From a bacterium (lineage in GTDB: Bacteria; Patescibacteriota; Dojkabacteria; SC72), in NCBI GenBank assembly GCA_021463465.1, contig JAJTYH010000002.1:265799-329798 (forward strand): a stretch of 64,000 nt of DNA. Direction: 5' to 3'. Positions 33,001-39,000 of this stretch are shown piece after piece; positions within the stretch are counted from its first letter, which is position 1, and the number at the start of each line of letters is the position of its first letter. The position numbers were made by a program.

Positions 33001-36000
33001 GAAATCCGGACGTGAACTGTAATACGCCCCCCATATCTGGCGCAATTTGGCTTTAGTCTTGTCTAAAAGCTCTTTGTCAGAATACTTATAGGATAGGGTT
33101 ACCGTGACATTTCTAACCAAATCCTCTGACAAATCCCGATACTTTTTACTCTCTAAAACTGATGAGACTACACTATTAACATCCATACTCCAGGATTATC
33201 CCATTAATTGAGATGGATGGCAAAAAAGTGTATAATGCCAGGTCAAAACTAACTATAATTCAATTAAGTTTTTTCTAAGTTTTATGGAATTCGCTAATTG
33301 GTTACTAGCTTTTCAATTCCAAAAGAAGTTTTGGAAATTTTGATTATCATCCCCATATTGGCCACCCTTATCAGTATAGGTCGATACGTTATAGGCCTTA
33401 AAACATTAGGTATATATGCACCAATTGCATTAGCAATTGCATATAAAATGACTGGACTTAGATACGGTTTAGCCCTCACCTTTTTAGTCATTATTGCATC
33501 ACTTATCGGCTACAGATTTTTAAGTAAAGTGCGAATGCACTACACTACCAGAGTTGCAGCTAACTATACCCTGCTCTCAATCTTAGTGATTACTGGAATT
33601 ATTACCTTCGATTCTATTCCTTTTTTAGGACTTAATAATTTTAATCAGATTAGCCCAGTAGGAGTAGTATTAATCGCTACTCTTTCAGATTTTTTCATCA
33701 AAGCCTACATCAAAAAGAGTCTATTTACTTCAATGCGAGTACTACTTGAAACCTTACTCATCTCAGTAATTGGATGGTATATAATCCGTTCCCCAAACAT
33801 TATCGAACTAATATTCCATAACCTTTGGATTATCCCACTCTTAGTTGCAGTAAATCTACTTCTTGGTAGATACAGAGGCTTCAGACTCAAAGAAGTTTTA
33901 AGATTTCAAACTATCCCTAATGATGCGGATACTCGCACTAATAAAAGCTAACCGAACTGTCCTGGGAATCAACCGCAGAAACCAGGAATATGTTCGGCCG
34001 TATAATCCAGTATCGCAGAGAGCTATTGCTGACAACAAAATATTAACTAAACGAGTGCTTGCTAAAGTTGGAATTCAAACTCCTCAAGTATACAAAGTAG
34101 TAAGAACCAAAAAACAATTGCAGTTTTTAGATTGGAATGCCTTACCTAAAAGTTTCGTCCTCAAGCCTAATCAAGGTACTGGAGGTAACGGTATTGTTGT
34201 CTTTTTTGGTAGAAAAAAGAACTCGCTTGAATGGATTCGCCCTAACGGGACTACAATGAGTACTAAAGACATTGCGCTCCATATCGAAAAGATTTTGGAT
34301 GGAAGCTTCTCGATGGGTAACAAACAGGATGTGGCCATCATAGAAGAGCGAATCAAGATAGATAAAGTTCTTAAACCCTACATCTATAAAGGAGTTCCTG
34401 ACGTGCGTGTCATTACATTCAACCGAATCCCTGCAATGGCTATGTTAAGACTCCCTACTAAAAGATCTGACGGTACAGCCAACTTACACTCGGGTGCTAT
34501 CTGCGTAGGAATCGATATGGCATCAGGCCTTACCACTACCGCAATGCACTTAAAGAAGAGGCCATTTGTCGAAGATACATACGTGCAAACAGAATACACA
34601 TTGGACTTGGAACAAAACCTACCTCTGAGAGGAATCAAAATCCCATACTGGGACGAAATTCTTAAGATTGCAATCAAATCACAAGAGGTATCAGAATTAG
34701 GATACCTTGGGGTTGATATTGCAATTGATCTGGACAAAGGTCCGTTGGTTTTTGAAATTAATGCCAGACCAGGGCTCGGCATTCAGGTAGCTAACATGGA
34801 AGGTTTGCGCAACCGACTTGAGAGGCTTAAAGGTTTAAAGGTTAAGAGTACTAACCATGCAATACGCTTGGCTAAGAATCTTTTTGGAGGTGAGATTGAA
34901 GAAGAAATTGAAAGCTTGAGTGGTAAGCATGTAGTAAGTGTAGTAGAGAAGATTCAGGTATTTCACCTAGCTAAAAAGATCGGCTCAAAACAAGACGGTA
35001 CCGGTAAGAAAGAGATGGTTAATGCAATGATGGATACAAGCAAACTGACATCCCGTATCAATGAAAAGTTGGCTTCAACAATCGGACTGTATCCTGATAT
35101 AAAGCGATTCAAAGACCTTCACCTACCCTCTTTCGACTCCCTTCATGATGCACAAGAGTATCTTGAGCAGAACGAACTCAAGCTAATACAAGATACCAAG
35201 ATCAATCGTATCGCTAAAATTGTTTATGATAATAAAGTAATTCTAAGGCCCGTCTTTGAAGTGGTAATTCGCATCGCAAAAGAGATTAAAACCTTTGAAA
35301 TGTTAGTTGATAGGGAGAAACAGATGGGATATTCTGTAGTCATTGGGCGAAAAGATCTAAAAGATTACTTAATTGACCCAAGCAAGACCTTTACACAATG
35401 AGCAATAAGAACTTTTTGAAAATTGCAGGAAATATTCATCTTTCATACTACGTTCAAGCCGCTGACGAGTTGGGAATAAAATACGAGATTGTAATCCCAA
35501 GTCTTACTGCCAAGTTCGACTTTGGAAAAAGACACTGTTACATCAATAACACAGTAATTCCACTAAACAATGCCCCTAGTTCAAAGCTTGCCAGAGTCAA
35601 ACATTTTGCTAACCAGCTTATGGAAAGACATAATGTACCTGTTCCGAAGCAACAGAAGCTTAATAAAGAGATTGATGCATTGGCTTTTTTTGGAAAGTTC
35701 CAGAACATAGTAATCAAGCCTTCACAAAATTTGGGAGGCAAAGGTGTTTCAATCCTGCCAAAAAATGAAGAAGAGGTACTTGAGTCATTCAAATTCGCTA
35801 AGGAACATGATCGGTTTGGTCACGTATTAGCTGAAGAGTATATCCCAGGTGATAATTACCGAGTACTTGTTTTAGGTGATAAAGTGCTTAGTGTTATCAA
35901 AAGAATTCCTGCTCATGTGACTGGAGATGGCAATTCAACTATCCAAAGTCTTATTGAAAAGACAAATGAGATTCGTAAAAAGAACATGCTTATGCCAATT

Positions 36001-39000
36001 GATGTAGATACCGAGCTCATGCACAAGCTAGCTTCACAAGAATTGACCCTGGAATCAGTTCCCGATAATGAAGTAACCGTCTACTTAAGAAGTAATGCTA
36101 ATATGAGTACAGGAGGAACCACAGAAGAAGTATTAGATACCGTCAATAAATACTACAAGGACATCTGCGTTCAAGCTTTAAATGCTTTGGACTTAGAATA
36201 TGCCGGAGTCGACCTTATCACCCCTGATATCACCAAGGAAGCTAAGTGTGCTATTAATGAAGTAAATTTCAATCCAGGTTTGAGACTCCATTACAAGATA
36301 AATAATGGGACACCACAACACGTAGCCCTGCCCGTTATGCAATATATTAAAGAAAAGTATTCAGCTTAATTAATCATTAAATGAACATGCCCATAAAAGT
36401 ATTGCAAGGTTTAAATTTGGAATACCCTGGTTCCACCATAATTATAAGCCTAGAGTCGTCCATATCCCCTAACCTATTGGACAAAATACAAGGTTTTCAC
36501 GGGGTTTTCATGGATGCGTATAAGCTCAAAAGAAATGAACTAACAGTACATACTAAACTTACCCATCTGTGGGTAGAGATTGGAAAAGCCCTACAGAAGA
36601 TGGCTTCTCAAGACTGGAGTGAAGATTATACAGAGAAGTACGTCCTTGAAGTGATAATTAAGAAGCAGATCAATTCTATGTCGACAATTCCAATACTAAT
36701 GGCTGCACAGCAAGAAGGGTTAGAAATCACACAGTACTATGTCAGAGAAGGCATCAATGAAAGTGCAGCAATAAACAGGTACTACGCAATCGGTTGTGGA
36801 CAGGAGTCAAATACTACATGCAGCATTTCCTCAAGCAAAGACGCTTATATCGCCCAGAAGACCCAAAGAGACAAAATCTTGACCAACACGGTAATCCAAC
36901 GACTTGGTATCCCCCTACCCAAATGGGTCGAGATTACAAGTAAGGAAGATATAGATAATAACTGGGAGGATTTCAGTAAACCAATCGTTATCAAGCCTAC
37001 TGGCCTTACAGGTGGTAATGGTGTTACAACCCGCATCAAAACTAAAACTGAAGCATATAAAGCTTTTAAGTTTACACAAGAGATTGTAAACGCAAAGGTA
37101 CGTTCCAGCTGGCAAACCAAGATAATGATGCAAGAGCAAGTCAGTGGTGAAGATTATCGACTTTTAGTTATAAACGGCAAATTTGAGATTGCGACCAAGC
37201 GCATTCCTGCACATGTCATAGGTGATGGAGTTCAGTCAATAGAACAGCTTATCGCTGAAATCAATAAAGACTCAAGGCGCGATGTCACCAACCCGACACA
37301 CACCCTTAAACCAATTCTTGTAGATGAGAGTCTTACAGATTTTCTACAAGAACAGGGTTTGAAATTGGATTACATTCCAAAGCGTAATGAGCAAGTTTTC
37401 GTGAGGAAGGTTGCCAGTATGAGTAAAGGTGGAATTACAGAAGATTTCACAGAAAAGGTTCATCCCCAAATCAAGCACATTGTAGAGGCATTATCAGCTT
37501 CGATCCATGCTTATGTAGTAGGAGTTGATGTATTGTGTAAGGATATTTCTAAACCCCTTACACCACAGAATGGGGCTATTATTGAATGCAATACTATGCC
37601 GGAAGCATACCTTAACTCATTCCCCGTTATAGGACAACAGCACCCGAATATTGGCAAGATTTTCTTAAATGGGCTAATAGGGACTCGGACCAAGCGAATA
37701 GTATACGTCGGGAAAGACTTATCTAAAGCAAAGACTTATTTAAAAACTCGTATTGATTTCGGCAATGAAACTATCGGCATATGTTCCACTGGCACGCTAT
37801 ATACAAATGACTATATAATTAATCAGCCAATTGAACTTCCAGAAGCTTTTGAAGCTTTAAAGCTAAATGCCAAATTAAGTACAATCCTGCACCATTTATC
37901 CGCAGAGGAAGTCGCAAACCATGGCTTAGGATTTGAAAGAATCGATATCGCTATTGTAGACAAAGATATAGTAAAAACCTTGGAAACTCTTGAAGGATAT
38001 AAGAACTTAGGACTAATTTCAGAGATTAAAGCAGTTTGAAATACTTAGTAATAGACAAAAAGCAACGAATTGAAACCTCAGCAGATGCTACATACGCTAT
38101 AACTCGAATGACGGAAGAATTCGAGAAGATGGGAGTTGAATATCTGTTTGCAACTACCGATGATATTGACATAAAGATAGATAAAACTTTACAGATTTCG
38201 GTCCTCGGGCATGACCTAACAAGTTTCACCCACATATTACTCAGAGGACATAGATTACATAAGCCTTGGGAGTATGAAACTAAGAAAATCATTGCTGACT
38301 ATATCGACCAATATAACCATAACAACACAGACAAACCTATTCGCCTGCAGAATATTAACGCATTTAAAACCATCTCTTACTACGACAAGTTGTATATCTA
38401 CAAACTGTGCACAGAAAATGGTATCTCTATTATACCGATACACTACAGGACATCCGGGAACTACAAAGCACAACCATCACTTCACTACCCCTTTATACTC
38501 AAAGATTTCACGGGCGAGAACGATTTGAGAGTGATTGACGGCAAAGAGAAGATTAAAAAGAATGTTTACCTAATAAATAATGAGAATGATTTATCCCAAG
38601 AAAACCTGCAAGGTAAGGACACGACCAAATACTTCTCTCAAGTATTTGTGCCAACTGGTGAAGACATCAGAGTCTTTGTCAGTAAAGGCGAAGCTGTAGG
38701 AGGGTTCAGAAGAAAAGCTACCGAAGGTTTTATGACAGTACTCAAAGGCGAATACTATTCATTGGTCATGGATGAAGAAAAGGCAATCAAGGAATTTAGT
38801 GAAAAAGTAGCACGCGTTTTCAAGGCTGATTTTATAGCTGTAGATGTAATGGCTGATGAAAAAGGCAACCTCATGCTCCTAGAAATCAGCTTAAATCCAG
38901 GATTTAAAGCCTATGAGACCAAATCAGTCGGAGAACATATAAACGTTGCCAAAACGATAATCGATTCTTTCTAAAGACCCGCTTTAACTAAAGCTTTTTC

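Follow-up and report, generated by a model that had tools for sequence, protein, structure and literature searches.

Two cyanophycin synthetase-related ATP-grasp proteins in a multi-ligase operon of Dojkabacteria

Bacteria of the candidate phyla radiation (CPR) have tiny genomes and scant biosynthetic capacity. The 64,000-nucleotide stretch of Dojkabacteria DNA considered here (assembly GCA_021463465.1, contig JAJTYH010000002.1, positions 265,799 to 329,798; hereafter the window) encodes side by side two ATP-grasp proteins, named G323 and C552, which resemble the G domain of cyanophycin synthetase (CphA). In CphA1, the G domain extends the poly-Asp backbone and the M domain adds Arg. This raises the question of what the two proteins make. 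The answer proposed below, in which we place an evenly balanced confidence, is that they are anciently diverged ligases of the CphA lineage, encoded in a multi-ligase operon that would build and trim a non-ribosomal peptide or polymer different from canonical cyanophycin.

Family assignment and ancestry of G323 and C552

Both open reading frames (ORFs; Table 1) were found where the initial annotation had placed them, and all the CphA G-domain motifs that it quoted could be located in the two sequences. The first of these motifs reads RIPAHVTGDGNSTIQSLI and RIPAHVIGDGVQSIEQLI in the two proteins; the further pairs are ANMSTGG/ASMSKGG, AGVDL/VGVDV and EVNFNPG/ECNTMPE. Comparison with NCBIfam models gives cyanophycin synthetase for G323 (227 bits, E 3e-67, model positions 165-470) as well as for C552 (231-238 bits, E 2e-70, model positions 118-571). 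The runners-up are GshAB (159-183 bits), aligned through its ATP-grasp part only (model positions 459-750), and NAGGN synthetase (117-125 bits), while the models for D-Ala-D-Ala ligase (Ddl), GshB, PurD and carboxylases all remain below 70 bits. Pfam gives generic ATP-grasp domains only. In a phmmer search of the sequences of the PDB, the best matches are CphA1 and CphA2, with E values of 1e-37 and 5e-44 for CphA1. The CphA G domain is the best match of both proteins in family and in fold, and their likeness to CphA is well beyond chance. The NCBIfam scores and the fold search thus uphold the earlier placement of both in the CphA-type G lineage, rather than among Ddl, GshB or carboxylase-type ATP-grasp proteins.

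CphA1 (PDB 7lg5, 7wac) is the best sequence family for the two proteins. Both score far under its equivalog cut-off TIGR02068 (227 bits for G323 and 231 bits for C552, against 850), and the range of 227-238 bits represents about a quarter of the CphA1 equivalog cut-offs (850-877 bits). Labels in public records vary between "cyanophycin synthetase", "D-alanine-D-alanine ligase-like", "ATP-grasp domain-containing protein" and "hypothetical". In GshF/GshAB (PDB 3ln7), the ATP-grasp domain is fused to GshA, a domain that G323 and C552 do not have; moreover, the P-A-M-H motif of GshF is replaced by the CphA-type P-G-L-R in G323 and by P-E-A-Y in C552.

A search of 1.84 billion representatives returned 8361 relatives, including many stand-alone G domains of ~320 amino acids (aa) and many proteins with two or three G domains in tandem. 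A neighbour-joining (NJ) tree was built from 223 domains, with the Listeria GshF module as root and 100 replicates. The C552 domains are monophyletic in 100/100 replicates, and the relatives of G323 exclude CphA1 in 97/100 and C552 in 96/100. The smallest clade with 11 CphA1-length representatives leaves out G323 in 82/100 and C552 in 68/100. The two families form separate clades outside the CphA1 clade, and C552 is not nested among CphA2-sized homologues. Mean identities are 0.35 for G323-CphA1, 0.34 for G323-GshF, 0.34 for C552-CphA1 and 0.32 for G323-C552. G323 and C552 are separate old lineages of the CphA/GshF-type clade, outside CphA1 and CphA2. The closeness implied by the term paralog in the initial annotation does not hold: the proteins of the window share 34% identity, and each is as near to CphA1 as to the other.

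Two simpler origins were discarded. A recent duplication is excluded by the 34% identity and by the separate clades. A frameshifted or split full-length cphA does not account for the gene pair either, the next gene encoding a RimK-type ATP-grasp protein and not the remaining M domain, and the length of C552 (552-570 aa) being kept in more than 100 homologues.

Homologues of both proteins belong to Candidatus Dojkabacteria/WS6 wherever they are named. With one genome scanned for each GTDB species, at least 105 relatives were obtained; 80 loci of these 105 were retained, with titles reading Dojkabacteria, WS6 or, generically, Patescibacteria, Saccharibacteria or Microgenomates. The scans also brought up a large and uncharacterised CphA-G-like group (P0243, P0250, P0267 and others; positions 5371-8385 of locus L089; L105). 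It comprises tandem G-G(-G) proteins of 660-2400 aa, fusions to CapA/PGA_cap, one of them on a Microvirga plasmid and adjoining an ABC/HlyD exporter, fusions to acylphosphatase and LPG_synthase_C, and one contig with six tandem paralogues of 480-560 aa.

Domain architecture and substrate pockets

G323 is a complete G domain alone, aligning to CphA1 residues 165-478. C552 is larger. Its AlphaFold model, calculated with 36 homologues as input, has a pLDDT of 91 and a pTM of 0.87. The best Foldseek match of this model is the CphA2 of Gloeothece citriformis (7ta5; E 8e-39, TM 0.72/0.69, 590 alignment columns); CphA1 structures come second, and GshF matches over the ATP-grasp part alone.

The C-terminus of C552 had been described as an unrecognised domain of ~130 aa. 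Its last 128 residues give nothing significant with phmmer or with a family hidden Markov model (HMM) against PDB sequences, but structure and profile-profile comparison make it recognisable as a remnant of the M domain. When the domain is modelled by itself (pLDDT 81), CphA2 and CphA1 account for all of the 15 best PDB matches (E 1.5e-5 to 1e-3), and MurE ligases come next. In addition, hhalign aligns it with the M region of CphA2-sized homologues (93% probability, E 3e-7), pairing KKIVviG with RIPtIvlG and GLGFDxID with GLxYDxcD. It follows that C552 carries a truncated M remnant without the catalytic loop. What remains of the Mur-ligase-type M domain is its initial ~100 residues, devoid of the P-loop: the site that reads GTNGKTTTT in CphA1 reads VGKDLSKAKT in C552, Gly444 alone is conserved there among the 79 C552 family members, and the chain stops before the catalytic Mur-ligase TNI..DH region. 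CphA1, in contrast, has a working Mur-ligase M domain with its P-loop (GxxGKT/S). The claim that both proteins lack an M domain is therefore correct in that neither has a Mur-ligase P-loop, but it must be amended for C552, which retains an inactive stub. A Mur-ligase domain at this end of the protein, which the initial annotation regarded as incompatible with its view, is present only in this reduced form, so that the view is refuted in part. Mur-ligase chemistry is beyond both proteins.

At the other end of C552, the initial annotation proposed a domain of ~165 aa arranged like the CphA N domain. A short domain, with a beta-beta-alpha-beta-beta-alpha-alpha topology and limited to residues 1-98, is indeed present and is probably homologous to the CphA N domain. 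The stretch cited in favour of the longer one, STIPILMAAQQEGLEI..YYAIGCGQES (residues ~100-145), already belongs to the G domain, of which it forms the beginning; its counterparts in the alignment are residues 15-60 of G323 and 165-205 of CphA1. The HMM of the C552 N domain finds no match among PDB sequences, and the Cx19HxxEH metallopeptidase motif, which belongs to CphA1 N domains (PMC9262961), is absent.

Overall, C552 is a degenerate three-domain CphA in which a short N domain precedes a G domain and an inactive M stub. CphA2 (PDB 7ta5, 8fxh/8fxi), whose M domain is described as truncated and inactive (PMC10273328), has the same architecture, which G323 does not share. The N domain is shorter in C552 than in CphA2 (~98 against 158 aa), as is the M stub (~125 against 150 aa). 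Furthermore, CphA2 is cyanobacterial, whereas C552 comes from Dojkabacteria and has no cphA1 or cyanophycinase context in the locus, to which the search was confined.

To locate functional residues, roles established for TeCphA1 (PMC9427784) and StCphA2 (PMC10273328) were transferred to family alignments of 74 distinct G323 and 79 distinct C552 sequences, drawn from 85 related loci. The equivalents of CphA1 Lys220, Lys261, Arg309, Arg323, Glu450 and Asn452 are 100% conserved in both families (Lys68, Lys107, Arg155, Arg169, Glu288 and Asn290 in G323). Because these catalytic residues are all retained, both proteins should be active ligases.

The substrate pockets distinguish the two families, the Asp pocket being retained in G323 and altered in C552. 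G323 keeps the equivalents of CphA1 Asn394, Ser396, Gly456, Arg458 and His460; Asn235, Gly294 and His298 are 100% conserved, Arg296 99%, and position 237 is Ser or Thr. The pocket of C552 is invariant but different (Ser346, Met347, Ser348, Glu408, Tyr410 at 99%, and Asn412), so that the positions of CphA1 Asn394/Ser396/Gly456/Arg458 are occupied by Ser/Ser/Glu/Tyr. The resulting S-S-Q...E-Y-N signature was seen in the C552 family only. Judging from the alignment, Glu408 is placed where a cationic substrate could bind.

Two further positions depart from the known enzymes. CphA1 His267, which stabilises the acyl-phosphate, is Gly in both families; this His is also missing from some CphA1-length homologues. 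Where CphA1 and CphA2 have an acid that binds the Arg side chain of the primer (Glu215 and Asp212, respectively), 88% of G323 relatives have Thr, and the C552 family varies between Lys, Glu, Thr and Asn. StCphA2 Asp212, Asn393 and Ser395 have been implicated in the binding of beta-Asp-Arg and cyanophycin (PMC10273328). Of these, C552 keeps Ser395 alone, Asn393 being replaced by Ser346 (100%) and the Gly-x-Arg of CphA2 by Glu-x-Tyr.

The initial annotation suggested that the two enzymes could make a backbone without branches, or could leave the branches to the stand-alone ATP-grasp enzymes encoded next to them. These residues bear on a refined form of that idea, namely a cyanophycin-like storage polymer whose synthesis is split between separate enzymes. 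G323 would extend a poly-Asp backbone, and C552 or one of the RimK-like and RloC-like ligases encoded beside it would put a basic or other residue on the Asp side chain. Alternatively, C552 would act like CphA2 and polymerise dipeptides supplied by the neighbouring ligases; the peptidases of the locus would remobilise the polymer. The full CphA1 Asp pocket of G323 and the CphA2 architecture of C552, evidently derived from a three-domain CphA-like ancestor, agree with such a division of labour, and the invariant Glu408 could hold a cationic substrate. In addition, the G-domain clade includes fusions to CapA, which takes part in the synthesis of poly-amino-acid capsules. The primer-binding acid and the His267 of CphA1 are nevertheless not kept, the Asn393 of CphA2 is Ser in C552, and both families lie outside CphA1 and CphA2. 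Cyanophycinase and isoaspartyl dipeptidase were not seen among the ~40 ORFs scanned in the window. Finally, the partners of the two proteins are of Rlo, RimK and MATCAP type, and the 7TM_transglut and ATPgrasp_ST families point to a membrane-linked process rather than to cytoplasmic granules. On balance, a split storage polymer appears unlikely.

The operon, its neighbours and their recurrence

The five genes of the forward strand overlap or nearly abut at their ends (Table 1). They form an operon encoding four ATP-grasp ligases, with the gene of a 7TM protein first, G323 third, C552 fourth and the RimK-like gene last. Further stand-alone ATP-grasp genes accompany the pair, as noted in the initial annotation; they are RloC-like and RimK-like. 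A single strong promoter-like site lies ahead of the 7TM gene.

Table 1. Coordinates of the operon, of the domains of C552 and of adjoining features in the window
Feature	Position	Strand	Description
Terminator-like hairpin	32400-32421		After rplL; closes the upstream rplJL unit
Promoter-like site	33208..33236	+	TTGAGA-17-TATAAT, 11/12; consensus scan alone
7TM protein	33298..33951	+	217 aa; matches RloB transmembrane module
RloC-like ligase	33920..35401	+	493 aa; ATP-grasp residues 1-306 and retropepsin-like residues ~330-493
G323	35398..36369	+	323 aa; stand-alone CphA-type G (ATP-grasp) domain
C552	36381..38039	+	552 aa; CphA-type ATP-grasp protein
C552 N domain	36381..36674	+	Residues 1-98
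C552 G domain	36675..37652	+	Residues ~99-424
C552 M-domain stub	37653..38039	+	Residues 425-552; truncated Mur-ligase type
RimK-like ligase	38036..38974	+	312 aa; last operon gene
MATCAP/DUF1704/QEGLA metallocarboxypeptidase	38971..40125	-	Pfam MATCAP 92.9 bits
Second MreB paralogue (MreB2)	40154..41176	-	Immediately upstream of the MATCAP gene

The 7TM protein matches Pfam 7TM_transglut (PF14402; 75.7 bits, profile positions 54-246/248). In the NCBIfam RloB model it covers positions 313-505/508 alone, and it has no transglutaminase-like ectodomain. The RloC-like ligase matches Pfam ATPgrasp_ST (PF14397) with 226 bits and TIGR02291 with 280 bits, under the cut-off of 314. Its C-terminal domain is a weak match to Pfam Zn_protease (E 0.0037), of the RimB/RloA retropepsin-like type. 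The retropepsin motif D-T-G is well conserved in the family (Asp 98%, Thr 100%, Gly 89%) and reads DTS in the window; a second motif, G-R-x-x-L-x-G-Y-L-I-D, is also conserved. The RimK-like ligase matches Pfam RimK with 43 bits and NCBIfam rimK_fam with 50 bits, under the cut-off of that model. The convergent MATCAP gene shares 4 nucleotides with the end of the operon. Its metal-binding HExxxH (His213, Glu214, His218) and EEG motifs, as given in PMC10499314, are 100% conserved in the family alignment.

The first two operon genes, which overlap, correspond to the 7TM module of RloB and the adjacent ligase RloC in the RloABC system of Pseudomonas aeruginosa. A retropepsin-like domain of the RloA/RimB type is found here too, fused to the cytoplasmic ligase, whereas the Rlo protease is secreted. 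The inactive transglutaminase ectodomain of RloB is lacking in the Dojkabacteria 7TM protein. Compared with Rlo, the operon adds two CphA-type ligases and a RimK-like one, and the locus a MATCAP peptidase. P. aeruginosa cells that have lost the secreted RloA proteases are sensitive to hypo-osmotic conditions, have a changed morphology and lose antibiotic tolerance; deletion of rloB or rloC suppresses these defects, which places RloA, RloB and RloC in one process (PMC12239564). By analogy, this suppression would fit a product that needs processing. ATP-grasp ligases also occur together with a MATCAP-family HExxxH/EEG carboxypeptidase in the modification of tubulin tails by TTL/TTLL and MATCAP/TMCP. 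The ligases of the operon, however, fall outside the TTL family, neither a tubulin-like target nor an acidic tail was found, and the link is one of gene context only.

In the 85 related loci, the gene order is unchanged wherever the contig suffices: L10, L7/L12, in some cases an Rmt-family gene, then the 7TM protein, RloC-like ligase, G323, C552 and RimK-like ligase. On contigs that are long enough, the genes of MATCAP and MreB2 follow on the opposite strand. This constancy extends over about 80 species genomes of Dojkabacteria. MreB2 is a conserved neighbour whose membership of the system is uncertain. It is one of two MreB paralogues in the window, the canonical mreB (24919-25974, -) being located beside a PBP2-type transpeptidase gene (21650-23644), and its C-terminal extension, which varies, is not acidic.

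The association of ligases with peptidases raises the possibility of a cycle acting on protein C-termini, in which the ligases would be writers of Glu, Asp or other residues and the retropepsin-like domain and MATCAP the erasers. Candidate targets would be the 7TM protein, a ribosomal protein or the adjacent MreB paralogue. Precedents for such tailing are RimK acting on S6 and TTL/TTLL acting on tubulin. The RimK-like and RloC-like ligases of the operon are related to RimK, mreB2 is co-oriented with the MATCAP gene and directly upstream of it in every locus, and the cluster comes after rplJL. In addition, RimB-type retropepsins work with RimK on RpsF (PMC12239564) and MATCAP enzymes trim protein tails (PMC10499314). 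Yet no conserved acidic or aromatic C-terminal tail was found on MreB2, L7/L12, the 7TM protein or the proteins of the cluster, the substrates known for G domains of the CphA and GshF types are polymers and small peptides rather than proteins, and the more distant clusters described below are flanked by neither mreB nor ribosomal genes in the two cases of L108 and L143. Such a cycle is, in our opinion, quite unlikely.

When metagenomes were scanned with more distant stand-alone G domains as seeds, three clusters of another order and with other flanks came up on unrelated contigs. The first (L108, GC 0.43), between uvrC and mnmA, encodes on one strand 7TM_transglut, ATPgrasp_ST, MATCAP, G-like, RimK-like, G-like and again G-like proteins. 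One of these G-like ligases carries the CphA1 pocket and a His in its P-loop, and the two others have Arg458 replaced by Asp or Ser. The second (L143, GC 0.45), between ruvC and a PBP1a gene, encodes 7TM_transglut, an ATPgrasp_ST::Zn_protease fusion that exceeds the Pfam gathering score, G-like and RimK-like proteins and an ATP-grasp::GNAT fusion. In the third (L099), a G-like gene comes after an RloC-like gene. These clusters show that the gene set is recurrent, with one Asp-pocket ligase accompanied by others with changed pockets. In L108, a separate Transglut_core protein is encoded two genes upstream of the 7TM gene (157-1371); it may be the RloB ectodomain encoded separately.

The ATP-grasp::GNAT fusion of L143 recalls NAGGN synthetase and agrees with another proposal, that of a small soluble peptide of two to five residues, for instance an osmolyte or thiol, which would be made as by the GshF module or NAGGN synthetase and whose level the peptidases would set. 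GshAB and NAGGN synthetase being the second and third families for both proteins, the near equality of the identities of G323 to the Listeria GshF module (34%) and to CphA1 (35%), and the tie of the rlo genes to osmotic tolerance go in this direction. The Dojkabacteria operon, however, has no GshA or GNAT partner, C552 keeps accessory domains of a polymer synthetase (the N domain and the M stub), and a single small metabolite would hardly call for as many parts as four ligases, a 7TM protein and two peptidases. We regard a small peptide as very unlikely.

MATCAP homologues also adjoin ligase genes elsewhere. On Rhizobiaceae plasmids, a MATCAP homologue adjoins a GshB-like ATP-grasp gene; in Pararhizobium (L087, 5394-9165), the gene of an N-formylglutamate amidohydrolase (FGase) lies directly upstream of the MATCAP homologue, followed by the GshB-like ATP-grasp gene. 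A Vibrio 'QEGLA motif' protein (L086, 6107-8098) is an FGase::MATCAP fusion.

Several other features of the window were recorded. Between rplL and the operon lies an Rmt-family methyltransferase gene (32407-33186, -), of the aminoglycoside-resistance type that produces 16S rRNA m7G1405 (NCBIfam 195 bits, under the cut-off of 250), shared with few relatives (L001, L006-L008). The tryptophanyl-tRNA synthetase (TrpRS; 42777-44282, -) carries an N-terminal editing domain of YbaK/ProX type (PF04073, residues 29-149), a fusion common to locus L001 and not to L002, which has a plain TrpRS of 332 aa. Ribosomal protein S2 (16443-17540, -) has a C-terminal extension like the C-terminal domain of the RNA polymerase alpha subunit (residues 308-365, 26.7 bits). 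A 442-aa protein (49838-51166, -) contains DUF4135, the N-terminal dehydratase region of lanthipeptide synthetases of LanM type, with no cyclase domain detected. GC skew over the window (1-64000) is mostly negative and becomes positive only at ~28-30 and 34-38 kb, in stretches of + strand genes; it appears to track the coding strand. A PADLOC run gave no match to a defence system, an identity that was set aside on this ground.

A proposed function and its meaning

ATP-grasp enzymes generally activate a carboxylate as an acyl-phosphate and join it to an amine. In the reading that we favour, each ligase of the operon would use ATP to phosphorylate the carboxylate of a growing peptide and would then join one specific amine unit. 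G323 is expected to add aspartate or a close analogue, because the Asp pocket of CphA1 is retained. C552 would add another unit, which may be a cationic amine or one without a carboxylate, because Tyr takes the place of the Arg that binds the alpha-carboxylate, next to an invariant Glu. Like those of CphA2, its N domain and M stub could provide a scaffold or surfaces for oligomerisation. The product would be a non-ribosomal hetero-oligopeptide or poly-amino acid, made at the 7TM protein or passed to it and trimmed by the two peptidases, of which the MATCAP enzyme belongs to carboxypeptidases known to trim Tyr and Glu off acidic tails (PMC10499314). By analogy with the Pseudomonas rlo genes, the role is probably related to the envelope or to osmotic balance.

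Several points weigh against this proposal. Substrates, product and ligation order are deduced from residue patterns alone, an intact Asp pocket is no proof that Asp is used, and functional data on related parts, those for rlo in P. aeruginosa, are genetic only. The NJ tree is a simple one with partly modest supports, CphA1 excluding the C552 family in 68% of replicates, and the homology of the N domain is deduced from a whole-chain structural alignment and a weak hhalign match (E 0.019). As to gene order, unrelated flanks (rplJL, trpS, PEGA, uvrA) are equally syntenic in these streamlined genomes, and synteny within Dojkabacteria is for this reason weak evidence of functional linkage; the argument for linkage depends on the clusters L108, L143 and L099.

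A bolder form of the same idea can be formulated: an as yet unknown non-ribosomal poly- or oligo-amino acid, made by Dojkabacteria and certain other uncultured bacteria, for which the logic of cyanophycin synthesis would be split between an Asp ligase, a ligase of cationic units and the RimK- and RloC-type ligases, the product being delivered through the 7TM protein and edited by the retropepsin-like and MATCAP peptidases. We hold it to be rather improbable. A still more radical variant would be a bacterial writer/eraser code on the tail of the adjacent MreB paralogue.

A search of the accessible literature yielded no paper on the cluster, on cyanophycin in Dojkabacteria or the CPR, or on a bacterial MATCAP together with ATP-grasp genes. 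Neighbourhoods of ATP-grasp, 7TM-transglutaminase and peptidase genes were reportedly described in silico by Iyer and colleagues in 2009.

G323 and C552 are probably not strict cyanophycin synthetases, and no categorically new mechanism has to be invoked; they are CphA-lineage ligases recruited into an expanded Rlo-like multi-ligase system. The operon joins such ligases to an Rlo module, known in Pseudomonas for antibiotic tolerance and biofilm, and to bacterial homologues of MATCAP; if true, the division of cyanophycin logic among the ligases would reveal the biochemical class of the product of the Rlo system. The distinct invariant pockets of the two families are directly testable predictions of substrates and could yield new enzymes for designer poly-amino acids. 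C552 indicates that an architecture of the CphA2 type arose or persists beyond cyanobacteria, with another substrate pocket. Finally, the fact that Dojkabacteria hold six genes in an invariant order points to an important product, whether it serves in the envelope, as an osmotic buffer or as a nitrogen store.

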